From the IMG/VR virus record IMGVR_UViG_3300045988_103014, positions 141,780-194,171 of that record: a stretch of 52,392 bases of DNA. One strand, 5' to 3'. Each line of letters begins with the position of its first letter. Position 1 is the stretch's first letter. This DNA is from a virus. The notes beneath the pieces were generated by a model. That model saw only the letters and a list, made by a program, of their open reading frames with translations, was not told where the DNA came from and did not search any database. Both the position numbers and the translations under genes were made by a program. This document shows, piece after piece, positions 12,227 through 51,751 of this stretch.

Positions 12227-12261
12227 ATGTACATACTCCTTTCTCACTTTTTTTTATTTGC

Positions 12262-19502: not shown

Positions 19503-20612
19503 TTACATCTGTCCTGAAAGACGTCCGTCATAAGTAGCAACCTTACCAGTTACTCCATCAAAATTCCAAGTACCCATCTTACCAAGTAGAGCAGTGTCTA
19601 CATAAGAACAGATGTTGTTAGCAAGGATAGCTGTTACACCAACCTTCTTGTATACCTGGATTTCACGAGAACGGTCATAGTTGGTGTACTCATCAACGAT
19701 TGTGCCACCCTCGAACGCAATCTTTACAGGCTTTCCATCAGCACCAGTAGGAATTACCCAAGCATAACCAGGGTCAATTACCTTGCGGCTGTTAGTCTCA
19801 TCTTCGAAGCCCTGCTCAAGGATGATAACCTTAGTTCCCTTGTAGTTAGCAAGACGACCTGTATTCCAAAGCTCTGTCTTCATAGCCTCAGTGTATCTCC
19901 AAGCTTCGCTAGGAATCATACGAACTGCGAACTCATAAGTACAGTAGATAGTTGGAGTACCATAAGCAGCTGCGATGTTGATAAGTCTATCCATAGCAGC
20001 CTCATCGAAACCAGCAACAGCAACCTTGTTTGCAGGTGGTAACTGGTTAATAGATGCCTTTAATGCTGCAGCAACTTCCTTGTAGATTAACTCGTCCATA
20101 CCATCCATGATAATCTTAGTAACTTCTGCGAAGTCTACACGACCATCAAGGAACTCTTCGAAGCCAATCTGAGCTGCTCCACCGATAGCGCTAGTACGAA
20201 CTTCGAAGCTCTCGCTCTCAGCTGGTCCAAGCTTGAATACCTCATAGATACCTGCTAAACCAACACGAGTGATGAACTGCTTAGCTCTTGCGCGTGTCTG
20301 AAGTGGACGTCTAAATACAGCCTTATCGCCCTGTGCGAATGTCTTTGTCTCAGCGAACTGGTCGTACTGCTGAGAAACCTTCTTAGGAAGAACCTCATCC
20401 AAAGTCTCCTCAATCATAGAGAAGATAAGGTTCTTGTTCTCTCTATATAGAGAATATGTGCCAGCCAATTCATTCATTTCCTGGCGTAATGTTTCGTTAA
20501 GTGCTTCGTATGAAAGCTGCTTATCTCCAAAAGAGTAAGCAACAGGAGCTGAAGGGTCAGCCTTAGCAACTTGCTTCATAAGAGCAACTAAATTTGTTCT
20601 ATCTAATGCCAT
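19503..20612 (-). CDS. major capsid protein candidate (369 aa)
   Basis: Size and position (after portal and morphogenesis genes) fit. It is followed by the strongest terminator in the window, a 13-bp GC stem at 19430-19474. Confidence 0.45.
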   Translation of the reverse strand: MALDRTNLVALMKQVAKADPSAPVAYSFGDKQLSYEALNETLRQEMNELAGTYSLYRENKNLIFSMIEETLDEVLPKKVSQQYDQFAETKTFAQGDKAVFRRPLQTRARAKQFITRVGLAGIYEVFKLGPAESESFEVRTSAIGGAAQIGFEEFLDGRVDFAEVTKIIMDGMDELIYKEVAAALKASINQLPPANKVAVAGFDEAAMDRLINIAAAYGTPTIYCTYEFAVRMIPSEAWRYTEAMKTELWNTGRLANYKGTKVIILEQGFEDETNSRKVIDPGYAWVIPTGADGKPVKIAFEGGTIVDEYTNYDRSREIQVYKKVGVTAILANNICSYVDTALLGKMGTWNFDGVTGKVATYDGRLSGQM

Positions 20613-29377: not shown

Positions 29378-29387
29378 AGTCAAATTT

Positions 29388-29417
29388 TTTGACAAACCTT
29401 AAAAATTTTGATATAAT
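29388..29417 (+). promoter_or_regulatory. rightward promoter of the 29465-34201 operon
   Basis: TTGACA - 18 nt - TGaTATAAT. Near-identical copy at 48568-48596. Confidence 0.6.
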
Positions 29418-30087: not shown

Positions 30088-30888
30088 ATGAGACCAGAGG
30101 ATATTAAAGTACCAATGATATTAAAAGATATTAAAGAATTTACTGCTCAATGGAAAGCTTGTATGAAAGACTATATTGAGCGAATGGAAAAGAAGCCTGG
30201 GCTTGCAATCATTCAAGTCGGCGACGTTGAGGCCTCAAACCGATACGTCCGCAACAAGATTAAAGACTGTGAAGAAGTTGGAATTAAAACTCAATTATTC
30301 AAATTTCCTGAAGACATTTCAGACGTGGCTTTAATCTCACAGTTAAATATGATTGAGGAGAATGATGATTTTACAGGAGTATTTATTCAACTACCCCTGC
30401 CACAACACCTGCAAGGTATTGAAAAACTAATTGACCCCGCAAAAGATGTTGATGGTTTTACTCCAGATTCTGGATATACACCTTGCACACCTCTTGGTAT
30501 AGTCAAGTATTTAGACTATTGTGGTTTTAACTTGGACGGTAAAAATGTTCTTGTTATTGGCCGCAGTGATATCGTAGGTAAGCCAATGGCTCGTCTACTA
30601 TTAGATAGAAATGCAACAGTGACAGTTGCTCATAGCCATACAAAAAATCTTGACGCATTTATTTACACAGCAGATTTAATTGTATGTGCAGTTGGAAAAG
30701 CAAACTTTTTAAGCTGTGAAACAATCTATGTACCAGTTATTGATGTTGGCATCAATTTTGATGAAAATGGTAAATTAGTTGGTGATTGTTATAAAACTGA
30801 AAATCGAGATGTTACGCCGGTTCCCGGCGGTGTTGGACTACTCACCCGCTGTGCATTGCTTCACAATTTAGTAACTGGTATTTCATAA
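30088..30888 (+). CDS. folD: bifunctional 5,10-methylene-tetrahydrofolate dehydrogenase / cyclohydrolase (FolD) homologue
   Basis: 266 aa, collinear with bacterial FolD. Conserved YVRNKxKxCEEVG (catalytic Lys region), LPLPxHL, DVDGF, PCTPxGI, VIGRSxIVGKPMAxLL, ATVTxxHSxTKNL, DVGIN and PVPGGVG segments. Confidence 0.85.
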   Translation: MRPEDIKVPMILKDIKEFTAQWKACMKDYIERMEKKPGLAIIQVGDVEASNRYVRNKIKDCEEVGIKTQLFKFPEDISDVALISQLNMIEENDDFTGVFIQLPLPQHLQGIEKLIDPAKDVDGFTPDSGYTPCTPLGIVKYLDYCGFNLDGKNVLVIGRSDIVGKPMARLLLDRNATVTVAHSHTKNLDAFIYTADLIVCAVGKANFLSCETIYVPVIDVGINFDENGKLVGDCYKTENRDVTPVPGGVGLLTRCALLHNLVTGIS

Positions 30889-33465: not shown

Positions 33466-34101
33466 ATGATTTATACCAGTTATTTCGCGCAAATGCGCAA
33501 TTTTCCCGTAAACTTCATACCAATAGCAATCTGCGGCGGCATACCAAAATGGTACAATGGTTTATGGTATAAGAAGGTCGCACCAAAGTGGGCTTTCTTT
33601 TCGCAATGGAAACAAACGCATGATGATGAATATTATGTAGAACATTTTAATAGAGAAGTATTGCAACCGCACGAGCCGCAAAGATTTTTGAACGAGATTC
33701 AGCTTTTGGTTCCAGAAGAGATTAGAGCTGGTATGGCAGAACCAGTTTGGCAAAGTAAGAATGTTCATGTCGTGTTGCTTTGCTATGAAAAGCGAGGTGA
33801 TTTCTGCCACCGACATTTAGTTAGTAAATGGGTCAACGACTGGGCGGGCAAAGACCTTATCCAGGAGTGGATTCCAGAAGCAGTGGAAGAAAGGGTTATC
33901 ACTGAAGATGAGTATCAGAAAGCAAAACAGTCCTTTGCCAATGGCGGCGAAGATGGCACAATTGAGCAAAGCGAACGAGATACGGAAATACCAGAAGACA
34001 GTGCAAGCACAGATTGCGGCGGTCACCAAGTCGATTCTCACAGCGACGAAACTGGGGGAGTTTTCGACGGGAGCATTGGATTTGTTGCCGGAGACAATTA
34101 A
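33466..34101 (+). CDS. DUF488 family protein with acidic C-terminal extension
   Basis: MIYTSYFAQMRNFP...PIAICGGIPKWYNG...VAPK...VVLLCYEKRGDFCHRHLVSKWV matches the DUF488 pattern (IYTSYFA ... LLCYEK...CHRRLVAEWL). The C-terminal ~85 aa are low-complexity and overlapped by a +1-frame ORF. Confidence 0.65.
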   Translation: MIYTSYFAQMRNFPVNFIPIAICGGIPKWYNGLWYKKVAPKWAFFSQWKQTHDDEYYVEHFNREVLQPHEPQRFLNEIQLLVPEEIRAGMAEPVWQSKNVHVVLLCYEKRGDFCHRHLVSKWVNDWAGKDLIQEWIPEAVEERVITEDEYQKAKQSFANGGEDGTIEQSERDTEIPEDSASTDCGGHQVDSHSDETGGVFDGSIGFVAGDN

Positions 34102-36183: not shown

Positions 36184-36615
36184 ATGAGTACAATGTTCGT
36201 AACAATCGGAATGCCTGGATGTGGTAAGAGCACTTGGGCACAGACTAAAAACGCAAGAGTGATTTCATCTGACGCAATTCGCGAAGAGATGTTCGGAGAT
36301 GAAGCAATTCAGGGCGACCCTCGCAAGGTATTCGCAGAGGTTTACAAGAGACTTGCACAGGCTCTCATTGATGATGTGGATGTAATCTTTGACGCAACCA
36401 ACCTCGACTACAAGAGAGCAAAAGCAATCGAAATGTGCTACGAAATGGATTGCGAATGTGTTGCCGTTTACTTTGATGTAGACGCACAGACTTGCATTGA
36501 GAGACAGAACATGCGTTCTCGCAAAGTTCCTGCGTCAGTTATTCGCAGAATGTCTCATCAGTTAGTTGTTCCTTACCTCGAAGAGGGTTGGACACGAATT
36601 GAAAAAGTTTCGTAA
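36184..36615 (+). CDS. polynucleotide 5'-kinase (T4 Pnk kinase-domain homologue, P-loop NTPase)
   Basis: MSTMFVTIGMPGCGKSTWA... (Walker A), DATNLDYKR and VPASVIRRM segments align with the T4 Pnk kinase domain (LTIGCPGSGKSTWA ... ISDTNLNPERR ... VPIDVLRSM). The second ATG, 8 nt after GAGAGG, is the start. Confidence 0.8.
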   Translation: MSTMFVTIGMPGCGKSTWAQTKNARVISSDAIREEMFGDEAIQGDPRKVFAEVYKRLAQALIDDVDVIFDATNLDYKRAKAIEMCYEMDCECVAVYFDVDAQTCIERQNMRSRKVPASVIRRMSHQLVVPYLEEGWTRIEKVS

Positions 36616-37474: not shown

Positions 37475-37493
37475 AAAAAGTTTCAAAAAGGGG

Positions 37494-37522
37494 TTGACAA
37501 ATGCCCCTTTTGGAGCTATAAT
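37494..37522 (+). promoter_or_regulatory. hairpin-embedded promoter for 37557 gene
   Basis: AAAAGGGGTTGACAAATGCCCCTTTT; 17-nt spacer; TATAAT. Confidence 0.55.
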
Positions 37523-37736: not shown

Positions 37737-37815
37737 TCCTTGTCCTTTTCATTTGGCGGCGCGCTTTCGGCCCTGGCGCGCCGAATTTATATTATACCAT
37801 ACCACCCGGGATTTT

Positions 37816-37910
37816 GTCAAGAGAAAATTTGCACAAATTTTTGGCGTTCAATTTCCCGAAATTTGTGCACATTTACCTATTGACAAATGGCTCAAGCTTT
37901 GCTATACTAT
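37816..37910 (+). promoter_or_regulatory. operator-promoter module 2 (drives a ~110-nt non-coding leader)
   Basis: GTCAAGAG ... TGCACAAAT (37830) - 22 nt incl. TTTCCCGAA - ATTTGTGCA (37861) ... CCTATTGACA (-35 37880) - 17 - TATACT. Confidence 0.55.
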
Positions 37911-38837: not shown

Positions 38838-39269
38838 ATGATGAAAGCAATTAACTTTGACATGGACGGAACATTAGCAAACTTCTACGGAGTAGAAAAT
38901 TGGTTGGAATACTTAATGGCAGAAGATGTAACACCTTACGAGGTAGCAAGACCACTCCTCAATCTTCAGGCACTTGCAAGAGTTCTCAACAGATTGCAGA
39001 GAGAGGGTTGGGAAATCAACATCATTTCTTGGTTAAGTAGAAACGGAAGTGATGACTACAACGCAAGAGTGACAGAAACCAAAAAGGCTTGGTTAGAAAA
39101 ACACCTTGCAAGTGTTCACTTCGACAACATCACAATAGTAAAGTACGGAACACCTAAACACACTTTAGGAAACGGAATACTTTTTGATGATGAAGAGCCA
39201 AACAGAAACGCTTGGGGCGTTGGTGCTTACGATGTGCAGAACATCATCGAAATTCTGAAAAATCTCTAA
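38838..39269 (+). CDS. HAD-family polynucleotide 3'-phosphatase (T4 Pnk phosphatase-domain homologue)
   Basis: INFDMDGTLA (HAD motif I DxDGT), ISWLSRNGS, and ILFDDEEPNRNAW (motif IV DD) are collinear with the T4 Pnk phosphatase domain (VIFDVDGTLA ... VVSGR ... LAIDDRTQVVEMW). Confidence 0.7.
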   Translation: MMKAINFDMDGTLANFYGVENWLEYLMAEDVTPYEVARPLLNLQALARVLNRLQREGWEINIISWLSRNGSDDYNARVTETKKAWLEKHLASVHFDNITIVKYGTPKHTLGNGILFDDEEPNRNAWGVGAYDVQNIIEILKNL

Positions 39270-39276
39270 AAAGGGG

Positions 39277-39305
39277 TTGACAAAACCCCTTGCAAGGGGT
39301 ATAAT
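39277..39305 (+). promoter_or_regulatory. hairpin-embedded promoter for 39326 gene
   Basis: GGGGTTGACAAAACCCC, then an alternative hairpin CCCCTTGCAAGGGG overlapping the spacer; TATAAT. Confidence 0.5.
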
Positions 39306-39517: not shown

Positions 39518-39607
39518 ACTCTGCAAGCATTTTTTTGCCCAAGTTTGGGCGCCGCGCGCACGAACGATGCGCGCGGAATTTTCATTATACCATACCCCAC
39601 AGCTTTT

Positions 39608-39700
39608 GTCAAGAGAAAAGTTGCACAAATTTTCAATCGGTGCTATTCCCGAAATTTGTGCATTTTGCCAGTAGACAAAGCTCTGTTGGAGTGTTATAAT
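39608..39700 (+). promoter_or_regulatory. operator-promoter module 3
   Basis: GTCAAGAG ... TGCACAAAT (39622) - 22 nt incl. TTCCCGAA - ATTTGTGCA (39653), then TAGACA-17-TATAAT. Confidence 0.55.
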
Positions 39701-40139: not shown

Positions 40140-40168
40140 GTGTAGCTGAAAAAAATTTCAAAAAGGGG

Positions 40169-40198
40169 TTGACAAGTTCCCCACAGTGTGCTATACTT
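40169..40198 (+). promoter_or_regulatory. hairpin-embedded promoter for NDT-like gene
   Basis: GGGGTTGACAAGTTCCCC; TATACT. Confidence 0.5.
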
Positions 40199-40227: not shown

Positions 40228-40629
40228 ATGAAGATTTATTTGGCAAGTCCATTTTTTAATCAGTTAGAAAGAGCAAATGTTGTAAAGGTCGCAGAGAGAT
40301 TGCGTGCCGAGGGTCACGAGGTCTATGTTCCAATGGAACACGAGATTGAAAATGCGTGGGATTTACCTAACAATGAATGGTCACGCAGAGTATTCAAAGA
40401 CGATGTTGACGCAATTCGCAAGGCTGACAAGGTTGTTGCAATCACTTATGGAATGACTGATGACGCAGGAACTTCGTGGGAGATTGGCTTTGCTTACGGC
40501 ATTGACAAAACTGTTGAGGTTATTTCTGTAAATCAGACAACTTATTCTTTAATGGTTTATCAGAGTTGTGCAGAGGTTTCAGACCTTGACGGAAACCCAT
40601 TAAGAAAAAAAGAAATTTTACAAAGTTAG
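40228..40629 (+). CDS. nucleoside 2-deoxyribosyltransferase-fold protein (NDT / Rcl-DNPH1-like)
   Basis: MKIYLASPFF (compare IYFGAGWF) and DDAGTSWEIGFAYGIDKTV (compare EDVGLGMELGYALSQGKYV) are the two signature segments of the Nuc_deoxyrib_tr fold. Confidence 0.6.
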   Translation: MKIYLASPFFNQLERANVVKVAERLRAEGHEVYVPMEHEIENAWDLPNNEWSRRVFKDDVDAIRKADKVVAITYGMTDDAGTSWEIGFAYGIDKTVEVISVNQTTYSLMVYQSCAEVSDLDGNPLRKKEILQS

Positions 40630-40632
40630 GGG

Positions 40633-40661
40633 TTGACAAAACCCCACTAATGGGGTATAAT
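40633..40661 (+). promoter_or_regulatory. hairpin-embedded promoter for 40693 gene
   Basis: GGGGTTGACAAAACCCC plus an alternative CCCCACTAATGGGG; TATAAT. Confidence 0.5.
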
Positions 40662-41679: not shown

Positions 41680-42342
41680 ATGAACAAGATTATGTATTGT
41701 ACTTTAGACACAGAAACAGTTGGTGGCGCAAGCAATCCAACAGGCACATACAATTATGGTGGAAAAATCCACGACAGAAACGGAAATGTTTTCGCAAGTT
41801 TTTCGCTTTTGGTTTCAAGTCACTATGAGGACATCAAGAACGATGACTATGCAAAAAAGAATTTTCCACTCTATGAGAGATACATCAACGAGGGAAAAGT
41901 CACAGTAGTTCCAACAGAGGAAATGGCACTTGACATTATCCGTCAGTTGTGCAGAGCCTACAATGTAAAGTATTTAATGGCTTACAATTCAGGCTTTGAC
42001 TTTGTAAAAACTAATTGCGCCGAGTTGCTTGACGAGTTCGAGTTCATTGACATTTACTTAATGGCATTACAGACAATTACTCACATCAAGAAGTATGCGA
42101 AGTTCTGCCGAGAGAATGGCTTTGTTTCAAGAAGTGGTAAGACTTGCGCAACTTCTGCCGAGAGTATGTTTGCATACCTCACAGACAATGCAGACTACAA
42201 AGAAGAACACACTGCCTTTGAAGATGCTTGCATTGAAATGGAAATCTTCCTTGCTTGCTTACGCACTCACAAGAAATTCACAAAGAATGTTCATCAGTGG
42301 GATTGCCGAGAGGGAAAAATTTTTCCAAAATGGGTTGACTAA
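41680..42342 (+). CDS. DEDDh 3'-5' exonuclease (DnaQ/oligoribonuclease-like), paralogue 1
   Basis: Exo I LDTETVG, Exo II YNSGFDF, Exo III HTAFEDACIEMEIF. Start is the second ATG, 10 nt after GAGAGG. Confidence 0.65.
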   Translation: MNKIMYCTLDTETVGGASNPTGTYNYGGKIHDRNGNVFASFSLLVSSHYEDIKNDDYAKKNFPLYERYINEGKVTVVPTEEMALDIIRQLCRAYNVKYLMAYNSGFDFVKTNCAELLDEFEFIDIYLMALQTITHIKKYAKFCRENGFVSRSGKTCATSAESMFAYLTDNADYKEEHTAFEDACIEMEIFLACLRTHKKFTKNVHQWDCREGKIFPKWVD

Positions 42343-42624: not shown

Positions 42625-42700
42625 AATTCTCGTCCTTTTTCAGCGCCGCGCCGGCGAACGTCCGGCGCGGTGTTTATTATACCACATCGGCTCAGCATTT

Positions 42701-42795
42701 GTCAAGAGGAAAATTGCACAAATTTTCAAATAATTTTTTTTCCCAATTTGTACAATCTGCCTATTGATTTTTATTAAAAAATTTGGTATTATAAT
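42701..42795 (+). promoter_or_regulatory. operator-promoter module 5 (degenerate right arm)
   Basis: GTCAAGAGG ... TGCACAAAT (42715) ... TTTTTCCCAATTTGTACA ... CCTATTGATT (-35) - 17 - TGgTATTAT. Confidence 0.45.
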
Positions 42796-42864
42796 AGTGT
42801 CAAAAGGAAAGGGAATAAAAAAACCGAGAGGAAAAAAAATTCCAAAAAAAAATGAAAAACCTAT

Positions 42865-42892
42865 TGACAAAATAAAAAAAATTTGTTATAAT
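42865..42892 (+). promoter_or_regulatory. middle promoter of triple stack upstream of wHTH A1
   Basis: TTGACA-16-TATAAT in A-tract DNA. Confidence 0.5.
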
Positions 42893-42961
42893 AATTATAC
42901 AAGGTAAGGAAAGAATTAAAAAGCAAAAGCCAATCGGCAATAAAAAAAATAAAAAAAGTGC

Positions 42962-42990
42962 TTGACATTCTTCAAAACCTATGTTATAAT
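42962..42990 (+). promoter_or_regulatory. proximal promoter of wHTH A1
   Basis: TTGACA-17-TATAAT. Confidence 0.55.
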
Positions 42991-43033
42991 AACAATGTAA
43001 ACAAAGTAAACCAACTCAAATCAAGAAAGGTAA

Positions 43034-43438
43034 ATGGTGGTAATTATGGAAAAGATGACTAATGTTAAGGCAATCGAGTATGTTCTTGCAAACGCAACTC
43101 TCCCTACTGATGTAAAGGAGAAGTTAGAGAAGATGAAGGCACAGTTTGTGAAGAAGAACTCTGCCGACAGAAAGCCTACTGCAAATCAGGTTGAGAACGC
43201 AGAGTTTAAGGTGGCAATCCTTGACTACCTTGCAACTGTTGAGTCTGCGACTATCTCCGACTTAATGAAGTCCGTTCCTGCTCTTGCAGAACTCTCAAAT
43301 CAGAGAGTATCGGCAATCGTTAGACAGTTAAAGGACTCTGGCGAGGTTGTTAGAGAGGAAATCAAGAGAAAGGCTTACTTCTCTCTTGCCGAGGACTCTG
43401 CCGACCTTGACGAGTCCGAGGACTCTGACGAGGAGTAA
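43034..43438 (+). CDS. winged-helix DNA-binding protein, paralogue A1 of a triplicated family
   Basis: TISDLMKSVPALAELSNQRVSAIVRQLKDSGEVVREEIKRKAYF reads as helix-turn-helix plus wing; acidic C-tail. About 70% identical to 44536..44928 and 48749..49132. The true start may be the ATG at 43046. Confidence 0.55.
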   Translation: MVVIMEKMTNVKAIEYVLANATLPTDVKEKLEKMKAQFVKKNSADRKPTANQVENAEFKVAILDYLATVESATISDLMKSVPALAELSNQRVSAIVRQLKDSGEVVREEIKRKAYFSLAEDSADLDESEDSDEE

Positions 43439-43467
43439 AAAAAATCGTCAAGGGGTGTAAAAACCCC

Positions 43468-43496
43468 TTGACAACTTCTCTAAATCGTGCTATACT
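43468..43496 (+). promoter_or_regulatory. promoter for paralogue B1 (its -35 follows a terminator-like hairpin)
   Basis: AAGGGGTGTAAAAACCCCTTGACA; TATACT. Confidence 0.5.
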
Positions 43497-43521
43497 ATAA
43501 TCAAGAAAGGGGGAAAGCCCA

Positions 43522-43893
43522 ATGACAAACGAAGAAAGAATTGAACAGTTGATGAAAAGTCTTGATTGTAGTCGAGAAGAAGCAATCCAAGTAATCGCAG
43601 ACGATGAAGCCATTGACAAGGGCGAAAAGTTGTTTGAACTCTCTGCCGAACAGAAAAAGGCGAGCAAAGACGCACGAAACACAGGTGCGAAAAAGCCGAC
43701 CGTTTACAAGTTCGATACTTCCAAGAGAAAGAAAGCCGAGAATGTGGGCAAACGCACATTGATTGATACAATCAAAGCAAGCCTTGATGAAATCGGTGTC
43801 GAGGGAATGGAAGTCACGAACCCCGAACGAGAGTTGAACTTCTCCGTTGATGGTGTCAAGTACAAAATCGTGTTGAGTTGCCCGAGAAAGTAG
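43522..43893 (+). CDS. hypothetical protein, paralogue B1 (pairs with 49230..49640)
   Basis: Shares KKPTVYKFDT and the C-terminal beta-rich region with paralogue B2. Confidence 0.45.
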   Translation: MTNEERIEQLMKSLDCSREEAIQVIADDEAIDKGEKLFELSAEQKKASKDARNTGAKKPTVYKFDTSKRKKAENVGKRTLIDTIKASLDEIGVEGMEVTNPERELNFSVDGVKYKIVLSCPRK

Positions 43894-43900
43894 GGCAACT

Positions 43901-44002
43901 TGCACAAATAAAATTCTCTGTTTTGCACAAAGTTCCAGCCGGAATTTTGTGCAATTTTTTTTATCCAAAAGGCTTGACAAAAGCGGCGACCTGTGCTATA
44001 AT
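43901..44002 (+). promoter_or_regulatory. operator-promoter module 6 (two left half-sites)
   Basis: TGCACAAAT (43901) + TGCACAAAG (43924) - 12 nt - TTTTGTGCA (43945), then TTGACA-16-TATAAT. The transcript immediately enters a GC hairpin. Confidence 0.5.
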
Positions 44003-44062
44003 GGCGCGCCGCTGTCGGCAGCAGCGGCGTGAATTTCCAGTATACCACACTCTCAGCAATTT

Positions 44063-44156
44063 GTCAAGCAAAAACTCCAGGGCAATCTGCACAAATCTTT
44101 TTCCCGAAATTTGTGCAACATTGCCTATTGCATTTTGGGGGTGGGTGTGCTATACT
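44063..44156 (+). promoter_or_regulatory. operator-promoter module 7
   Basis: GTCAAG ... TGCACAAAT (44088) - CTTTTTCCCGAA - ATTTGTGCA (44109) ... CCTATTGCAT (-35) - 17 - TATACT. Confidence 0.5.
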
Positions 44157-44324
44157 TATAATTGTCAAGGGGAGGTGGCAACGTCCGATACGAACACTGA
44201 AAAAAAATTGACAAAACCCCTTGACAAACCTCTCTCAATAGTGTATAATGATTATACAAGGTAGGGATAACAAATGAGATTGAAACCCACTTAAAATAAG
44301 TCAAAAAAAACTATTGACAAATAA

Positions 44325-44353
44325 ATAAAAAAGTGTTATAATAAATATATAAA
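44325..44353 (+). promoter_or_regulatory. distal promoter upstream of wHTH A2
   Basis: TTGACA-17-TATAAT. Confidence 0.5.
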
Positions 44354-44465
44354 GAAAAGGAAAGCGTCTTAAAAGTCGGTGTGGAAAACTCCTATGGCAT
44401 TAAAACTCGCGAGGTGTTAAGAGAAAACCCATTGCAGACAATTTCAAAAAAAATTAAAAAAAACA

Positions 44466-44494
44466 CTTGACAATTAAATAAAGAAATGTTATAA
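44466..44494 (+). promoter_or_regulatory. proximal promoter of wHTH A2
   Basis: TTGACA-17-TATAAT. Confidence 0.55.
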
Positions 44495-44535
44495 TAATAA
44501 TGTAAACAAAACAAATCACATTCAAAGAAAGGTAA

Positions 44536-44928
44536 ATGGTGGTAAACATGGAAAAGATGACAAACGTAAAGGCAATTGATTTCGTACTTGGCAACTGTGA
44601 GGTTCCTGCTGATGTAAAGGAAAAGTTGGAGAAGATGAAGGCTCAGTTCATCAAGAAGTCTAGTGCGGAGCGTAAGCCTACCGCAAATCAGACTGAGAAC
44701 GCAAGCCTCAAGGTGGCTATCCTCGACGCAATGGAAGAGGGTAAGGGTTACACCATCACCGACTTGATGAAGGTTGTGCCTGAACTTGCAGACCTCTCTA
44801 ATCAGAGGGTAAGTGCAATCGTTCGTCAGATGAAGGACGAGGGTACTGTAACTCGTGAGGAGATTAAGCGTAAGGCTTACTTCACAAAGGCAACTGACGA
44901 GGTTGCCGACCTTGAGGACGAGGAGTAA
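44536..44928 (+). CDS. winged-helix DNA-binding protein, paralogue A2
   Basis: Same architecture as A1; preceded by two tandem consensus promoters in AT-rich DNA. Confidence 0.55.
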   Translation: MVVNMEKMTNVKAIDFVLGNCEVPADVKEKLEKMKAQFIKKSSAERKPTANQTENASLKVAILDAMEEGKGYTITDLMKVVPELADLSNQRVSAIVRQMKDEGTVTREEIKRKAYFTKATDEVADLEDEE

Positions 44929-45026
44929 TCCTCGCCCCCTTGGGGGTAACTGAATAACGGATAAACTAGGGCGGTTTGAGCAAAGGCTTGAACCGCCCGC
45001 TTACGTTCGACGCGGGCGGTGTTTTC

Positions 45027-45109
45027 GTCAATAGGCAGTTTCAACAAATTTTCGGCGTAAAATTTGTGCAATTTTACCTATTGCAATTTTCCCGTAATCG
45101 TGGTATTAT
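45027..45109 (+). promoter_or_regulatory. operator-promoter module 8
   Basis: GTCAATAGGCAG - TTCAACAAAT (degenerate left) - 13 - TTTGTGCA (45063) ... CCTATTGCAA (-35) - TTTTCCCGTAATCGTGG - TATTAT. Confidence 0.5.
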
Positions 45110-45415
45110 AATAATGTCAAGAGGGGATGGTAACTCGGTAACAAGTCCTTAAAAAATTTTCACAAGAGTTGAAAAAACCTCTTGACAACCTCTCTCAAAG
45201 GTGCTATAATGAGAGAGTAGAAAGGAAATAAGAAATGGCACAGATAGTAATTTGTTGTGGTGGACAACCCACAGAAAAAGATAAGCGAGAGATTTACAAC
45301 TTGCTTGAGTTCAAAAAAAGATTAAAAAAAATAAAAAAGGTATTGACAAACCTACAAAGTAGTGTTATAATAAATACATAAAGAACAGAAAACAAATCAC
45401 AGAAAGAGAGAGGTA

Positions 45416-45991
45416 ATGAGTATGAATTACAGAGAAATGCAGACAATCGCAAAGGTTAATGAAGTAGTAAAGATGATTGAGGCTCTTGGTCTTAACGGAG
45501 AGTTCACAAAGAAACAGTTTGACAAGGTTCGTGCAAACGGCTCTACAAGTCTTGATTGGATGAGAGAACAGGGTATGAGAGCAAACGGACAGTTCGGTTG
45601 CAAGCCTTGGCGTAAAGAAACTTTCAGACCTATCGCAAAGTTGGTTCGTCAGGAGTATTTCACAATCACTCTCAAAGAGCCTATCGAAAAGAGAGTTGTT
45701 GTCACTGCCGACGGCAAAGAAATTCCTAATGTCAAGGCTGATGACATTCGTTGGAACTCTACCGCAAAGGCACTTCTTGAGCAGATTTTCCCTGGCTTTA
45801 GAATTGACTATGTAACAACAAATGAAATCGAGGTTTGCCGTAACTATTACGAAATCGACTATGATGTAGTAAGAGAAATGGTAGATTGGTGCGAGAGTAA
45901 GAATGCACTTGTTGCCGACTACTACGGCGAGAAACTTGCAAAAGCAAGAGCCGAGGTTGCAAGACTTGAAAGAATTGTGAGTGCTTTCTAA
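45416..45991 (+). CDS. hypothetical protein (191 aa)
   Basis: Own promoter (~45343-45371); RBS GAGAGAGG. Confidence 0.45.
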   Translation: MSMNYREMQTIAKVNEVVKMIEALGLNGEFTKKQFDKVRANGSTSLDWMREQGMRANGQFGCKPWRKETFRPIAKLVRQEYFTITLKEPIEKRVVVTADGKEIPNVKADDIRWNSTAKALLEQIFPGFRIDYVTTNEIEVCRNYYEIDYDVVREMVDWCESKNALVADYYGEKLAKARAEVARLERIVSAF

Positions 45992-46068
45992 AAGAAAAGA
46001 GGTGGGGGAGCAATCCCCCTACCTCTCTCAATAAATTTTCGCAGCTACAAAAATTTTTCCAAAAGGTA

Positions 46069-46097
46069 TTGACAAACTATAAATTTAATGTTATAAT
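46069..46097 (+). promoter_or_regulatory. promoter for HExxH gene
   Basis: TTGACA-17-TATAAT (position confirmed via the TTG-start ORF in the track). Confidence 0.55.
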
Positions 46098-46122
46098 AAT
46101 TATAGAAAGTGAGGAAAGAACT

Positions 46123-46608
46123 ATGGGACTTAAAGGAATTAAAACAATAAACAGAACATTAAATAAGTTTCTCGCACCTTTTGAGTGTACTGCAAGAATG
46201 GGAACTGAATTTTGTTATTTATACAGTAAGAGTTTGATTTTGTATTCGTTTGTAATGCCCGACCTCGAAATTGAACACGATTTCCAAGCAAGCATTGACC
46301 GACTTAATCCAACAGTAAAAATGGATAGTTTCCTTTGGGGTTTGCTTCACGAACTCGGACACCACGAAACAATGGACGAAATCGAGGACGAAGAATACGA
46401 GTATTGCCAACAGGTAAAAGAGCAAATCAACAACCAAGAGGTAGACGCAGTTGAATACTACGACCTCATTGATGAACGACTTGCGACAGAGTGGGCTGTG
46501 AGATACGCAGACGCCCACGCACTCGAACTCAAAAAGTGGTGGGAAGAAGAAATGCAACCTGCGATAATGCACTTTTACAAAATCAACAATGTAGAAATCG
46601 AGGGGTAA
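46123..46608 (+). CDS. HExxH-motif protein (putative small zinc metallopeptidase, ImmA/IrrE-like?)
   Basis: LLHELGHHETMDE contains HELGH followed by H and E, then an acidic run. Track ORF starts at TTG (= -35 box); ATG 46123 after AGTGAGGAAAG. Confidence 0.35.
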   Translation: MGLKGIKTINRTLNKFLAPFECTARMGTEFCYLYSKSLILYSFVMPDLEIEHDFQASIDRLNPTVKMDSFLWGLLHELGHHETMDEIEDEEYEYCQQVKEQINNQEVDAVEYYDLIDERLATEWAVRYADAHALELKKWWEEEMQPAIMHFYKINNVEIEG

Positions 46609-46664
46609 CACCCTCGGTTTTTTAATTTGAGCCGCGCGCCAGTGAACGTGGCGCGTGGTGTTTT

Positions 46665-46747
46665 GTCAAGAGTAATACTGCACAAATTTTTCGTGCAAAA
46701 TTTGTGCAAAATGACCACTTGACTTTTTTCCCGTAATCGGCTATAAT
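46665..46747 (+). promoter_or_regulatory. operator-promoter module 9
   Basis: GTCAAGAG ... TGCACAAAT (46679) - 13 - TTTGTGCA (46701), then TTGACT - TTTTTCCCGTAATCGGC - TATAAT. Confidence 0.55.
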
Positions 46748-46778
46748 GATTATAGTAAATGAAAGAGAGGTGGACACA

Positions 46779-46946
46779 ATGGACGCATTCAAGAGGGAAA
46801 CTGTTGTGGGTTGCACTGTTTGGGACATCAACGCAAAGTGTGTTCATAATAAAAACAGAGCAAAGGACTATCGAAAGGTTGTTCGGTCGGCTCGCAGAAA
46901 AAATCGAGAAAATTTGAAAAAAATGCTTGACAACCTGACCGAATAG
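46779..46946 (+). CDS. small basic protein (55 aa)
   Basis: MDAFKRETVVGCTVWDINAKCVHNKNRAKDYRKVVRSARRKNRENLKKMLDNLTE; operator-type promoter upstream. Confidence 0.4.
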   Translation: MDAFKRETVVGCTVWDINAKCVHNKNRAKDYRKVVRSARRKNRENLKKMLDNLTE

Positions 46947-46955
46947 AGTTATAAT
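46927..46955 (+). promoter_or_regulatory. promoter for membrane-protein gene 46987
   Basis: TTGACA-17-TATAAT; the -35 lies within the last codons of the upstream gene. Confidence 0.5.
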
Positions 46956-46986
46956 AATTATAGAAAATGAAAGAGAGGTATTGCCT

Positions 46987-47466
46987 ATGAATACAACATT
47001 ACTTATTACTTTTATCGTTTTATCTATCGTCAATGTAATCTTACAGACAGTAAAGTCTATCGTGACTATCAAGTGTGGTAAGATTTCAGCAAGTGTGGTA
47101 AATGCCGTTGCTTTCGGTCTTTACACTATCGTTACAGTTTACACAATGTGCGACTTGCCTTTAATGATTAAGGCTTTAGTAGTTGCCCTTTGTAACCTTG
47201 TCGGTGTTTTCATTGTAAAGTGTATCGAAGAAAAGACACGCAAAGACAAGTTGTGGAAAGTTGAACTCACAGTAAGAGCAGATAGAACAAATGTTCTTGC
47301 AAGAGAGTTAGAGGAACTCGCAATTCCTTACAACTACATTCCTAATGTTGGCAAGTACACAGTATTTAATATTTACTGTGCGACACAGAAAGAAAGTGCC
47401 TTTGTTAAGGAATTGACAACTCGCCACAAGGCAAAATACTTTGTCACAGAGAGCAAAGCCCTTTAA
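46987..47466 (+). CDS. membrane protein (3 N-terminal TM helices + cytosolic C-domain)
   Basis: MNTTLLITFIVLSIVNVILQ..., AVAFGLYTIVTVYTM, ALVVALCNLVGVFIV hydrophobic segments; could be a holin-like or superinfection-exclusion protein. Confidence 0.45.
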   Translation: MNTTLLITFIVLSIVNVILQTVKSIVTIKCGKISASVVNAVAFGLYTIVTVYTMCDLPLMIKALVVALCNLVGVFIVKCIEEKTRKDKLWKVELTVRADRTNVLARELEELAIPYNYIPNVGKYTVFNIYCATQKESAFVKELTTRHKAKYFVTESKAL

Positions 47467-47518
47467 TGGGCTTGCCCTCGCAAGGGCGGAGCTGCCGCAA
47501 AATTTTTTCAAAAAAGTA

Positions 47519-47547
47519 TTGACAACCCCAGGGTTTTGGTGTATAAT
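47519..47547 (+). promoter_or_regulatory. promoter for DEDDh exonuclease paralogue 2
   Basis: TTGACA-17-TATAAT. Confidence 0.5.
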
Positions 47548-47579
47548 TAACTTATCAAATGAAAGAGAGGTTTTAAGAT

Positions 47580-48230
47580 TTGGATTTTGGAATAATGATT
47601 GATACAGAAACTACAAACGGTTTTGATGACCCTATGTTTTATGACTGTGGGTGGCAAGTGATAGACACTCTTGGCAATGTTTACAGAGAACGCTCGTTCG
47701 TAAATGCCGACATTTTTTGTGGGGAAAAGGACTTGATGAAAGAAGCCTTTTTTGCCGACAAAATTCCTCAGTATTGGGAAGAAATCAAAGACGGCTCGCG
47801 AATGTTGGCAAGTACAAACGGAATACGCAAGGCACTTGCCGAAGATGTGCGAATGTTTGGTTGCTCGTTCATTTGTGCCCACAATGCACGATTTGACTAC
47901 AAGGCACTTGCGAAAACGCAAAGATACATCACAAAGTCAAAATACAGATACTTTGTTCCTTTTGGTCTTGTGTGGTGGGATACCTTGAAAATGGCTCGTC
48001 AAGTCTTGGGAAATGATGAACAGTACCGAGAGTTTTGCGAACTCAACGACTACATTTGCAAAAATGGACAGTTGAGAATGACAGCCGAAATCGTTTACAG
48101 ATTTATTTCTGACAATAACGATTTTGTCGAGGAACACACCGGCTTGGCTGATGTGGACATTGAAAGACAGATTTTGGCTTATTGTCTTGCAAAAATGCCA
48201 GACCTTGACCGAGAACTGTGGGGAAACTAA
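47580..48230 (+). CDS. DEDDh 3'-5' exonuclease, paralogue 2
   Basis: IDTETTNG (Exo I), HNARFDY (Exo II), HTGLADVDIERQIL (Exo III). TTG start 9 nt after GAGAGG is supported by alignment with paralogue 1. Confidence 0.6.
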   Translation: MDFGIMIDTETTNGFDDPMFYDCGWQVIDTLGNVYRERSFVNADIFCGEKDLMKEAFFADKIPQYWEEIKDGSRMLASTNGIRKALAEDVRMFGCSFICAHNARFDYKALAKTQRYITKSKYRYFVPFGLVWWDTLKMARQVLGNDEQYREFCELNDYICKNGQLRMTAEIVYRFISDNNDFVEEHTGLADVDIERQILAYCLAKMPDLDRELWGN

Positions 48231-48246
48231 CCCCCACAGTTTTTTG
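48216..48246 (+). terminator. terminator after DEDDh exonuclease paralogue 2
   Basis: CTGTGGGG-AAACTAA-CCCCACAG + T6; the stop codon lies in the loop. Confidence 0.6.
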
Positions 48247-48288
48247 TGCATTTTGCCTATTGACAAATAAATTTCCATGTGATAAAAT
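48241..48288 (+). promoter_or_regulatory. operator-promoter module 10 (right half-site only), transcript enters GC hairpin
   Basis: TTTTGTGCA (48241) ... CCTATTGACA (-35 48260) - 17 - TAAAAT. Confidence 0.4.
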
Positions 48289-48347
48289 GGCGCCGCGCCG
48301 ACGGTAGAGAGGCGCGGTAATTATTATACCACATCACCCCACAAAAA

Positions 48348-48433
48348 GTCAATAGGAAAATTGCACAAATTTTAACCCCATTTTTTATCCCAAAATTGTT
48401 ACTTTTGCCTATTGACACAAAAAGTCAATAGGC
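48348..48433 (+). promoter_or_regulatory. operator module 11 with perfect 10-bp outer palindrome
   Basis: GTCAATAGG ... TGCACAAAT (48362) ... GCCTATTGAC-ACAAAAA-GTCAATAGGC (48407-48433). Confidence 0.45.
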
Positions 48434-48505
48434 AATCTGCACAAAGATTTTCTGTTCAGTTTGTGCAATTCGCACATTGATTTTTTGTAAAAAATTTGGT
48501 ATTAT
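48434..48505 (+). promoter_or_regulatory. operator-promoter module 12 (distal promoter of wHTH A3 stack)
   Basis: TGCACAAAG (48438) - 13 - TTTGTGCA (48460), then TTGATT-17-TGgTATTAT. Confidence 0.5.
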
Positions 48506-48567
48506 TATTATACAAGGTAAGGGAAAGACCTTAAAAAAACTTTTCCAAAAAAATTAAAAAAAAACTG

Positions 48568-48596
48568 TTGACAAACCTTAAAAATTTTGTTATAAT
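48568..48596 (+). promoter_or_regulatory. middle promoter upstream of wHTH A3 (near-identical to 29388 promoter)
   Basis: TTGACAAACCTTAAAAATTTTGtTATAAT, versus ...TTTTGaTATAAT at 29388. Confidence 0.5.
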
Positions 48597-48675
48597 AATT
48601 ATAGAAAGTAAAGGAAAGGGAATTTCAAAAAGCCATTCGGCAAACAAAAAAAATAAAAAAAGTTGAAAAAAACCC

Positions 48676-48704
48676 TTGACAACTTTCAAAGTAAATGTTA
48701 TAAT
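48676..48704 (+). promoter_or_regulatory. proximal promoter of wHTH A3
   Basis: TTGACA-17-TATAAT. Confidence 0.55.
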
Positions 48705-48748
48705 AAGTATGTAAGGTAAACAAAAACAAATCACTCAAAGAAAGGTAA

Positions 48749-49132
48749 ATGGTGGTAATTATGGAAAAAATGACTAATGTAAAGGCTCTTGATGTTGTTC
48801 TTAATGGTGGCGAAATCACTGCCGAGGTTCGTGAGAAACTTCAGAAAATGCGTGAGCAGTTTGTGAAGAAAAATTCTGCCGAGAGAAAGCCTACGGCAAA
48901 TCAGACCGAGAATGCCTCTCTCAAGGTTGCCATTGTGAACGCAATGGAAATCGGTCGCAAGTACACTATTACGGACTTGATGAAAGCCGTACCTGAACTT
49001 GCCGACCTCTCAAATCAGAGAGTGTCTGCCATTGTCCGTCAGATGAAAGACGAGGGAACGGTTGTTCGTACCGAGGAAAAGCGTAAGGCTTATTTCGAGG
49101 TTGCCGTTACTGACGAGGGTGAGGACGAGTAA
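48749..49132 (+). CDS. winged-helix DNA-binding protein, paralogue A3
   Basis: ITDLMKAVPELADLSNQRVSAIVRQMKDEGTVVRTEEKRKAYF; three stacked promoters upstream. Confidence 0.55.
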   Translation: MVVIMEKMTNVKALDVVLNGGEITAEVREKLQKMREQFVKKNSAERKPTANQTENASLKVAIVNAMEIGRKYTITDLMKAVPELADLSNQRVSAIVRQMKDEGTVVRTEEKRKAYFEVAVTDEGEDE

Positions 49133-49174
49133 TCGTCCTTTGCCCCAAAGGGCAAAAAAAGTTTCAAAAAAGGC

Positions 49175-49203
49175 TTGACAAATGCTTTCGGCTTTGGTAT
49201 AAT
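49175..49203 (+). promoter_or_regulatory. promoter for paralogue B2
   Basis: TTGACA-17-TGgTATAAT. Confidence 0.5.
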
Positions 49204-49229
49204 GATTATAGAAAGTGAGGGAAATGCTT

Positions 49230-49640
49230 ATGACAGACTACATTAAAGAGGTTATGGAAATCACAGGCTACACACAAGCCAAAGCCGAAAAGTATTATCA
49301 GTCGGTTTACAAGGACTTGTCCGAGGACGGCGAGGTATCAGCCGAAGATGTAATCGAGGTTATCCGAATTGAAAAAAAGGTTAAGGACAACGGCGTAAAG
49401 ACTGTTGCGAGAGCCGACAAGCCGAAAAAGGCACCAACTGTCTACAAATTTGACACCGAAAAGACCAAAAAACGTCCAAAGGACGAGGAAAAAGTGCAAA
49501 TTGTAGAAAAAATTGCCGAATTTATGGCAGAAATTAGCGAAAATGCTGAAATTTCCAACCCTGGACAGACAATTTCGTTCAAAATCGGCGAAAATTCGTA
49601 CAGTTTGACCTTAACCAAGCACAGAACACCGAAAAAATAG
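49230..49640 (+). CDS. hypothetical protein, paralogue B2
   Basis: KAPTVYKFDTEKTKK shared with B1; ATG 8 nt after AGTGAGGG. Confidence 0.45.
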   Translation: MTDYIKEVMEITGYTQAKAEKYYQSVYKDLSEDGEVSAEDVIEVIRIEKKVKDNGVKTVARADKPKKAPTVYKFDTEKTKKRPKDEEKVQIVEKIAEFMAEISENAEISNPGQTISFKIGENSYSLTLTKHRTPKK

Positions 49641-49647
49641 TGCAATT

Positions 49648-49746
49648 TGCACAAAAAACCGGTGTCAAGGGGCAAAACCGACAAGGTTTGCCCCATTTTT
49701 TTGTGCATTTTTACTATTGACAAAGGGGGTCGGTCTGTGGTATAAT
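49648..49746 (+). promoter_or_regulatory. operator-promoter module 13 (terminator hairpin between half-sites)
   Basis: GTGCAATTTGCACAAAA (49642-49657; palindrome) ... terminator ... TTTGTGCA (49700), then TTGACA-18-TATAAT. The transcript enters hairpin GGGCCGGCCGC...GCGGCCGG. Confidence 0.5.
49669..49702 (+). terminator. terminator after paralogue B2, embedded between operator half-sites
   Basis: GGGGCAAA-ACCGACAAGG-TTTGCCCC + T7. Confidence 0.6.
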
Positions 49747-49782
49747 GGGCCGGCCGCTGACGCAAGCTGCGGCCGGAATTTC

Positions 49783-49867
49783 GTCAATAGGCAACATTCA
49801 CAAATTTTTCTCTCAAAATTTGTGCAATTTGACGGGTTGACTTTTTTCCCAAAATGGTGTATTATAG
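49783..49867 (+). promoter_or_regulatory. operator-promoter module 14
   Basis: GTCAATAGG ... TTCACAAAT - 15 - AATTTGTGCA (49820), then TTGACT - TTTTTCCCAAAATGGTGT - TATTAT. Confidence 0.5.
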
Positions 49868-49887
49868 TTACATAAGAAAGAGAGGTA

Positions 49888-51283: not shown

Positions 51284-51751
51284 ATGGTTAACCAGAACGA
51301 TATTTTGAAGGCGCTCCAGGAGGGCCAGGACGCTGGCACAATCGCCCAGCAGATGACTGATGCACTGAACGCCGCAATCGCACAGAAGAAGAAGATTGAT
51401 GCTGATAAGGCGAAGACTGAGCAGGAGAAGAAGATGCAGGCTGCCCGCAAGGAGCAGATTATGCAGGACATCCTGAACTCTATCTTTGACTTCATTGACG
51501 AGTTTTATCCTGACTTTGCAGTTCCAGCAGAGCTTGAGGAGCAGATGACTGCTGCCGCAGTAATCGAGTCTATGGACAAGGCCGCTGCCGAGGTAAAGGA
51601 ACTCGTGGCGCAGATGAAGGAGTTCGAGGCTATGCTGAAGAACTCAGATAAGCCAAAAGTAAAGGCAAATGAAACAGCAAACACTGTTCGTAAGCCTGCG
51701 GCTCCAGATAAGATTATTCTGGACTTCTTGCGCTCACAGGGCTTGGCATAA
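51284..51751 (+). CDS. hypothetical helical protein with GC-richer, host-like codon usage (155 aa)
   Basis: Classical AAAGGAG RBS rather than the cassette leader. Two tandem promoters upstream and two terminators downstream. Third-position G/C usage is clearly higher than in the rest of the window. Confidence 0.5.
   Translation: MVNQNDILKALQEGQDAGTIAQQMTDALNAAIAQKKKIDADKAKTEQEKKMQAARKEQIMQDILNSIFDFIDEFYPDFAVPAELEEQMTAAAVIESMDKAAAEVKELVAQMKEFEAMLKNSDKPKVKANETANTVRKPAAPDKIILDFLRSQGLA

Follow-up and report, generated by a model that had tools for sequence, protein, structure and literature searches.

A three-copy family of predicted winged-helix genes behind stacked promoters in the early region of an uncultured phage

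The winged-helix genes and their duplicated neighborhood

The DNA analyzed here is a 52,392-nucleotide (nt) stretch of the virus record IMGVR_UViG_3300045988_103014 in IMG/VR (positions 141,780 to 194,171 of the record; hereafter the window), which is part of a large uncultured tailed phage of the gut, ~194 kb in size and probably with a host among Clostridia. From 29.4 kb to the end of the window, the plus strand carries small genes (the early arm). Among them are three paralogous genes for a small protein with a predicted winged helix-turn-helix (wHTH), each of which lies behind a stack of host-type promoters. A hidden Markov model scan of all open reading frames (ORFs) in the window identified exactly three wHTH genes and two genes of a partner family, which are located as follows together with two exonuclease-like neighbors (lengths in amino acids, aa).

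43046-43438 (ORF opens at 43034), plus strand: wHTH paralog 1, 130 aa, with the acidic tail LAEDSADLDESEDSDEE
44548-44928 (ORF opens at 44536), plus strand: wHTH paralog 2, 126 aa, no partner gene
48761-49132 (ORF opens at 48749), plus strand: wHTH paralog 3, 123 aa
43522-43893, plus strand: partner gene 1, 123 aa, own promoter at 43468-43496
49230-49640, plus strand: partner gene 3, 136 aa, own promoter at 49175-49203
41680-42342, plus strand: DEDDh-exonuclease-like gene A (phrog_20187, E=4e-26)
47580-48230, plus strand: DEDDh-exonuclease-like gene B, 25% identical to gene A

A sequence-only reading of this DNA had described three paralogs of ~130 aa and ~70% identity, with a paralogous second gene after copies 1 and 3, and had proposed a pairwise comparison of the three loci. 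The comparison confirmed the paralogy as well as the homology of the upstream regions. The two other copies share 71% and 65% of their residues with copy 1, and the three pairs are 70%, 61%, and 76% identical when re-aligned with MAFFT. Nucleotide identity among the paralogs is 65–70%, and 34–52% of the identical residues are encoded by differing codons, which identifies the copies as old duplicates under strong purifying selection. The N-terminus MEKMTNVK, conserved among 43 homologs, begins at the second ATG of each ORF, and the true starts are therefore probably 43046, 44548, and 48761. Database versions of ~148 aa (P0038, P0043, P0046, and P0120) begin with MLDK, corresponding to ATGCTTGACAAA; these N-terminal extensions are annotation artifacts that arose when gene callers translated through the proximal promoter.

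The partner genes are likewise paralogous, as had been noted, with 30% identity (E=2e-9) and PTVYKFDT present in both. Between the neighborhoods of copies 1 and 3, identity is 61–65% for the wHTH genes, 30% for the partner genes, and 25% for the exonuclease-like genes. The much smaller divergence of the wHTH genes counts among the signs of very high expression. Because the exonuclease paralogs are located upstream of wHTH copies 1 and 3, the ancestral repeat probably consisted of exonuclease, wHTH, and partner genes in this order. The DEDDh-exonuclease-like genes accompany the wHTH cassettes in the window and in most related phages, with conserved synteny.

Stacked promoters and leaders

The promoter stacks and leaders of the three wHTH genes are listed below, where a perfect promoter is a 12/12 match to TTGACA-N17-TATAAT.

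42764-42990, plus strand: stack of copy 1; P1 (42764-42792) is weak (9/12) and of the class with the TTTGTACA upstream element; P2 (42864-42892) and P3 (42962-42990) are perfect
44221-44495, plus strand: stack of copy 2; three perfect promoters (44221-44249, 44314-44342, and 44467-44495) with no ORF of at least 35 aa between them
48477-48704, plus strand: stack of copy 3; P1 (48477-48505) is weak (9/12); P2 (48568-48596) and P3 (48676-48704) are perfect
42991-43045, plus strand: leader of copy 1, long and A/C-rich; equivalents at 44496-44547 and 48705-48760

Seven of the nine stacked promoters are perfect (42864, 42962, 44221, 44314, 44467, 48568, and 48676), whereas the sites at 42764 and 48477 match at only 9 of 12 positions (TTGATT/TATTAT, with a TG extension). 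For copy 2, the stack that had been placed at 44325/44466 exists, but its first site is in fact at 44314, and the promoter at 44221 had been missed. By a base-composition estimate, ~0.007 perfect sites would be expected by chance in this 12 kb, compared with the 23 that are present. Each stack consists of at least two consensus sigma-A promoters, as predicted from the sequence, on the same strand and with no intervening gene or terminator. There is no ORF between the promoters of stack 1, in which P2 and P3 are preceded by A-rich, UP-like tracts.

The plus strand of the early arm (29–52.4 kb) has 43 promoters scoring at least 11/12, and 31 of these lie 20–50 nt before a gene start. Promoter density is not special by itself, because small genes of the early arm typically have approximately one consensus promoter each; what stands out is the presence of promoters without a gene. 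Twelve early-arm promoters are orphans in this sense, seven of which are located upstream of the three wHTH genes.

The regions preceding the three wHTH genes show homology along their whole length, and thus the duplicated unit included regulatory DNA. The alignment of copies 1 and 3, with 73% identity over 416 nt, takes in the GCCAATCGGCAA/GCCATTCGGCAA segment quoted in the sequence-only reading and agrees with its claim that the spacers are conserved. The same DNA had been described as A-tract-phased and probably curved. This was rejected, as the periodicity is weak (small spectral peaks only, at 11–14 bp) and an UP-element reading is sufficient. The leaders that start from the proximal promoters of the wHTH genes measure 40–44 nt to the first ATG, compared with 20–32 nt for other genes, and their final ~24 nt (tcaaagaaaggtaaatggtggtaa) are nearly invariant in the three copies despite heavy synonymous divergence in the coding region.

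A search of the window and four related loci against Rfam found no RNA family, and the inter-promoter segment 44350-44470 folds no better than shuffled sequence (z = -0.06). Between the copy-2 promoters (44380-44445), the blocks GGAAAACTCCTATGG ... TAAGAGAAAACCCATT are kept in the closest relative (locus L005, 9830-9900). The blocks are shared with the closest relatives only and contain no conserved ORF or micro-ORF, no significant RNA fold, and no Rfam match.

The wHTH protein family

An AlphaFold2 (AF2) model based on the 43-sequence alignment, with a predicted local distance difference test (pLDDT) score of 80, bears out the wHTH and acidic tail that had been read from the translations. In the model, helices at residues 6–16 and 21–38 are followed by a canonical winged helix (46–115) and a disordered acidic tail. 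The predicted domain comprises a three-helix bundle with a recognition helix and then a beta-hairpin wing, which places it in the winged-helix superfamily. A linker, ERKPTA[NT]Q.EN, is invariant in sequence and has low confidence in the model. There are 38 invariant columns among the 43 homologs, concentrated in the recognition helix (NQRVSA.VRQ) and the wing (R.E.KRKAYF). As conservation peaks in the recognition helix and the basic wing, the whole clade may have one nucleic-acid target in common.

No Pfam model reaches its threshold for the wHTH proteins; the most common weak matches among the 43 members are Mnd1 HTH (21 members), MarR_2 (12), and TrmB (11). Membership in the MarR family was rejected because MarR_2 scores only 15–16 bits against a cut-off of 27 (best E-value 1.6e-4, over 12 of the 43 members). 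The model also has only two N-terminal helices and lacks the dimerization helices C-terminal to the winged helix, where a disordered acidic tail is predicted instead. A Z-alpha domain is characterized by a conserved asparagine and tyrosine in the recognition helix and a tryptophan in the wing; this assignment was also rejected, as the signature is incomplete and the tyrosine is absent. An N-terminal helical hairpin and an acidic tail distinguish the wHTH family from MarR/PadR/ArsR-type repressors, Mnd1/Hop2, and Z-alpha alike.

Searches with the wHTH sequences returned no meaningful match in a PDB sequence profile search, weak matches only in PHROGs, no match in NCBIfam, only sub-threshold Csa3/CARF-associated winged-helix regions in PADLOC (E ~0.002–0.005), and only uncharacterized phage proteins in BFVD. 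A DNA search of GenBank phages gave nothing beyond promoter-like matches of ~80 nt, and the only tblastn match among GenBank phages was one unannotated metagenomic fragment with 34% identity. In an exact protein look-up, the 126-aa form is on record and the 130-aa form is not. The identical wHTH protein is found on metagenomic contigs as long as 193,905–194,171 bp. The wHTH proteins are therefore a previously unannotated winged-helix family with no characterized homolog in the databases searched. The domain recurs two to four times in tandem in long metagenomic proteins or is fused to Sel1 repeats or HIRAN (P0148, P0152, P0160, P0269, and P0284); as clues to function, these fusions and tandem arrays were set aside because they gave no clear lead. 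For partner protein 1, the model (pLDDT 84) predicts three helices, an invariant PTVYKFD linker, and then an alpha plus three-stranded beta domain, for which a fold search gave no match to a known fold.

The structure of the protein bears on one alternative, namely that it is a host-takeover factor in which the winged helix, the linker ERKPTA(N/T)Q.EN, and the acidic tail bind and neutralize an abundant host protein. RNA polymerase or sigma, a nucleoid protein, or a defense protein could be the target, the high dosage would serve stoichiometric titration, and the partner protein would be a possible cofactor. The extreme conservation, which extends to the low-confidence linker, and the net acidic charge with a poly-acidic tail are compatible with this role, as is the position of the genes among small early genes with individual promoters, in a region that may be analogous to the SPO1 module. 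Codon bias and promoter stacking, as signs of dosage, fit it equally. However, conservation is highest on the surfaces that canonically contact DNA (recognition helix and basic wing), the tandem arrays and the fusion to HIRAN, a DNA-end-binding module, suggest nucleic-acid binding, and no host partner can be named. We regard a host-takeover factor as a doubtful explanation, but one to be kept in mind.

Conservation of copy number and promoter stacking

All 54 of the 54 IMG/VR loci that were compared, as well as L003/L004 (185 kb) and L005, have two to four wHTH copies each, and most related loci also have partner and exonuclease genes near them. The family counts 1357 homologs and 2814 clusters at 50% identity, none with a Pfam assignment, and is confined to large uncultured phages from gut and rumen metagenomes. 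It is a hallmark of a clade of large (~130–200 kb) uncultured tailed phages of gut Clostridia.

Promoter stacking is specific to the wHTH family across this clade. At least two promoters were found within 300 nt upstream in 65 of 81 non-redundant wHTH genes, compared with 0 of 53 partner genes and 5 of 45 exonuclease genes in the same test. Stacked perfect promoters precede wHTH genes in L003, L005, L006, L052, and L040.

In a neighbor-joining tree, the copies of close relatives group by position (the window with L005; L009 with L016), and those of distant lineages group by genome (L006, L023, L030, L039, L042, L048, L049, L052, and L059). Given the common synteny, we read this pattern as a likely sign of occasional gene conversion, or possibly of re-duplication. 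The coexistence of both kinds of clustering argues that the multi-copy state itself is a trait preserved by selection.

A non-adaptive origin would make the orphan promoters remnants of PeSL-type cassette recombination that deleted small genes, and the paralogs neutral segmental duplicates. The early arm is indeed built of near-identical promoter cassettes with the leader TATAATaattatagaaag..., and leaders of orphan promoters keep Shine-Dalgarno-like sequences with no start codon after them. In T4-type phages, PeSL cassettes mediate deletions that leave tandem or degraded cassettes (PMC4122927). Such leftovers are nevertheless a highly improbable explanation, as the stacking occurs at homologous positions in three units and in distant relatives and is specific to one gene family, the stacked promoters are still perfect 12/12 sites, and the paralogs are under strong purifying selection.

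Expression signals

Codon bias in two of the wHTH genes is at least as strong as that of the major capsid gene. In copy 1, AAG makes up 1.00 of lysine codons (14/14), GAG 0.81 of glutamate codons, and C-ending codons 0.74, while the values for copy 2 are 1.00 (16/16), 0.75, and 0.76. The major capsid gene has 1.00, 0.62, and 0.61, and the AAG fraction for lysine in typical early genes is 0.1–0.6. The proposal that promoter stacking implies very high expression is thus backed by capsid-grade codon bias in copies 1 and 2, the multi-copy state throughout the clade, and the restriction of stacking to this family, although the level itself would follow from the design of the locus. Likewise, a very early timing is suggested solely by the use of host-type promoters and by where the genes lie within the early arm. 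Four independent signals (dosage, tandem perfect promoters, a conserved translation-initiation region, and capsid-grade codons) would place the wHTH protein among the most heavily expressed products of the phage.

The second promoter class and its upstream motif

The distal promoters of stacks 1 and 3 belong to a second promoter class, (A)TTTGTGCA-N9-10-TTGACA, in which the motif TGCACAAAT is located a fixed 9–10 nt upstream of the -35 hexamer. Thirteen exact copies of this motif are present, all within 37.8–49.8 kb. Promoters of this class often start at a GC hairpin, and the apparent motif dyads (spacers of N12 or N22) are back-to-back divergent promoters. The modules next to the stacks are as follows.

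42632-42763: module upstream of stack 1, with a GC hairpin at 42642-42674, a minus-strand consensus promoter with its -35 at 42705, and a TGCACAAAT/ATTTGTACA pair
43974-44130 and 48260-48476: homologous modules

The sequence-only reading had regarded the wHTH proteins as a prime candidate for the factor that recognizes the repeated TGCACAAAT operators. A specific regulator of this kind would bind the TGCACAAAT/TTTGTGCA elements and activate or repress the second promoter class, including its own distal promoters, with a high dosage needed since the sites multiply during genome replication. The predicted winged-helix fold is consistent with such a role, and the stacks begin with a second-class promoter (42764 and 48477) near motif pairs at 42715/42746, 44088/44109, and 48438/48459. 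The confinement of the exact motif copies to a single 12 kb region also fits, and no other DNA-binding fold was recognized among the early genes of the window.

Nevertheless, helix and motif do not covary across relatives. Loci with 0–4 copies of TGCACAA per 12 kb (L006, L052, L053, and L049-L058) have the same recognition helix, (S/T)NQRVSA(I/L)VRQ, as loci with 10–16 copies, the overall range being 0–16. Conversely, L059 has a divergent helix (STPKVSALMKQ) and L030 an altered one (NQKVTALVRN), yet L059 has 11 motif copies and L030 keeps the motif, both in the same promoter context. In L006, three wHTH copies with stacked promoters are retained whereas the second promoter class is nearly absent. 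The variable spacing of the half-sites (N12–N22) is as expected for motifs tied to promoters and not for a fixed dimer site. The operator proposal therefore fails this test, which is moderate evidence and not proof, as the loci cover 12 kb each and degenerate motif variants exist. A specific regulator of the second promoter class is, in our judgment, unlikely, and a classical low-copy repressor of TGCACAAAT sites is probably not what the wHTH protein is.

The intergenic modules repeat at 42632-42792, 43974-44156, 48260-48505, and 49717-49870, and also at ~37770-37910, 39560-39700, and 46630-46750. Each has a stable, GC-rich hairpin (-17 to -27 kcal/mol) between convergent consensus promoters predicted to start transcription at the hairpin, and beside it a divergent promoter pair with TGCACAAAT/ATTTGTGCA 9–10 nt upstream of each -35. 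The stems are kept while the hairpin sequences differ between copies, and the module is also present in L003, L005, L049, and L040. Its purpose may be to produce short sense/antisense hairpin RNAs or to act as a bidirectional terminator.

Many early-arm promoters share a common leader (TATAATaattatagaaag...) and an adjacent stem-loop. Several stem-loops carry the -35 hexamer of the next gene in the loop or 3' arm (43447-43496, 39268-39305, 40160-40197, 40625-40661, and 37485-37522; e.g., ggggTTGACAaatgcccctttt). As the terminator-like hairpin overlaps the next promoter, each small gene looks like its own transcription unit.

Possible function of the wHTH protein

Our tentative preference is that the wHTH protein is an abundant, stoichiometric early DNA-binding or global factor, similar in action to p6 of phi29 and TF1 of SPO1 but unrelated to them. 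The design of the locus would flood the cell with the protein early in infection. The two to four gene copies per genome would supply dosage, and each copy would be driven by two or three tandem host sigma-A promoters composed of UP-like A-tracts, TTGACA, a 17-nt spacer, and TGnTATAAT. Their outputs should add up because no terminator or gene separates them. The long, unstructured, A/C-rich leader with its conserved translation-initiation region may further boost each copy, and copies 1 and 2 employ capsid-grade optimal codons. From the conserved DNA-contact elements we infer that the protein binds DNA; it might coat or organize phage or host DNA, or shut down early promoters globally, and the acidic tail might modulate binding or recruit partners. 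A protein in which the phage would invest so heavily at the onset of infection is likely central to takeover or genome protection.

Several observations weigh against an abundant DNA-binding factor. The protein is net acidic (-1 to -7) with an approximately neutral winged-helix domain, and proteins that coat DNA non-specifically tend to be basic. Winged helices are a generic fold that may equally serve in protein-protein contacts. The codon bias is weaker in copy 3 and could reflect the origin of the genes rather than their expression level. The by-genome clustering comes from a neighbor-joining tree of ~120 residues with no support values. Finally, as the only recognized early DNA-binding protein, the wHTH protein is the sole candidate within the window for binding the TTTGTGCA elements.

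A more far-reaching version of the preferred reading, which we consider quite unlikely, is that the wHTH protein is a phage chromatin protein that reaches capsid-like amounts within minutes and selectively coats DNA. It would either mark or shield the phage's own, possibly base-modified, genome against host nucleases and defense systems or silence the host nucleoid. The nucleotide enzymes of the early arm would fit DNA modification, and gene conversion would uphold the number of paralogs because dosage is limiting. If true, this would give a large clade of abundant gut phages a winged-helix equivalent of SPO1 TF1.

The wHTH family is large, extremely conserved, and without annotation, and it is a good first biochemical target in a phage group without a cultured member. 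The promoter stacks may also be of use as off-the-shelf sigma-A promoter parts of very high strength in Clostridia and other Firmicutes.

Genomic context

Structural and packaging genes occupy the minus strand from 2.5 to 29.3 kb of the window, and a portal and a large terminase were recognized among them with PHROGs. Other genes of the window with recognizable products are as follows.

2582-12247, minus strand: tape-measure protein, 3220 aa, Pfam PhageMin_Tail match
19503-20612, minus-strand structural arm: HK97-type major capsid gene
30088-30888, early arm: FolD (methylene-tetrahydrofolate dehydrogenase/cyclohydrolase)
33466-34101, early arm: DUF488-N3a protein
36184-36615, early arm: AAA_33 kinase
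38838-39269, early arm: NT5C-type 5'-nucleotidase
40228-40629, early arm: nucleoside 2-deoxyribosyltransferase-like protein

The length of the tape measure implies a very long tail. Relatives of the portal are found in the gut phage phAss-1 (36%), ~140-kb Enterococcus phages, and SPbeta-like phages. No cultured relative was found by DNA search and tblastn against GenBank phages. A search for the host yielded only contigs of metagenome-assembled genomes, and neither an isolate genome nor a prophage. As these related contigs are binned mostly with Lachnospiraceae and other Clostridia, the host is probably a Clostridial Firmicute.

Back-to-back consensus promoters at 29383-29417, with -35 hexamers 5 nt apart, divide the minus-strand structural arm from the plus-strand early arm. 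The 27-kb structural arm has no further promoter matching at least TTGAC[AT]...TA[TA]A[AC]T. The enzyme set of the early arm suggests remodeling of the nucleotide pool and possibly modified DNA bases. The gene at 51284-51751 (155 aa, no family match) has two gene-less perfect promoters upstream (50797 and 51159) and, with AAG at 0.94 and GAG at 0.86, the strongest codon bias in the early arm after the wHTH genes; its product is a candidate for a second very highly expressed early protein.

Comparison with known systems

The closest functional parallels are p6 of phi29 and TF1 of SPO1, which are small early proteins of Firmicute phages with a role in global DNA organization and control of early promoters, similar to the one proposed here. 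A very high copy number is a further likeness, implied for the wHTH protein by the design of its locus, and p6 also has an acidic C-terminus. On the other hand, p6 and TF1 each come from a single-copy gene, and neither shares the winged helix predicted for the wHTH protein, TF1 having an HU fold. No homology to p6 or TF1/HU was detected in PDB sequences, PHROGs, or BFVD, and the likeness is a functional analogy only.

Stacked promoters are also known from T7, in which the tandem strong promoters A1, A2, and A3 for the host RNA polymerase are located ~100 bp apart on one strand upstream of the early genes. Both phages place several tandem strong host-type promoters before early genes, but T7 has one stack at the genome end for the whole early operon, whereas here a stack precedes every wHTH copy in a region with one promoter per gene.

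According to PMC8892312, the host-takeover module of SPO1 (Stewart et al. 1998) is made up of small early genes with promoters and ribosome-binding sites designed for very strong expression, and members of the module inhibit RNA polymerase and HU (see also PMC8208478). Like this module, the early arm groups small early genes that each possess a strong host-type promoter of their own and a ribosome-binding site geared to such expression. There is no homology between the proteins, however, and here one family has three copies and tandem promoters.

The PeSL cassettes of T4-type phages consist of an AT-rich tract, a near-perfect sigma-70 promoter, a Shine-Dalgarno sequence, and an adjacent stem-loop (PMC2839356, PMC4122927). 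The layout of the early arm agrees with this definition of a cassette (PMC4122927), for example at 43447-43496, where the hairpin aaggggtgtaaaaacccctt overlaps the -35, and in both cases the cassette elements are repeated between small genes of a plastic early region. The early arm differs in phage lineage and host phylum and in that some stem-loops enclose the -35 hexamer itself; moreover, the promoter stacks of the wHTH genes are conserved and not sporadic.

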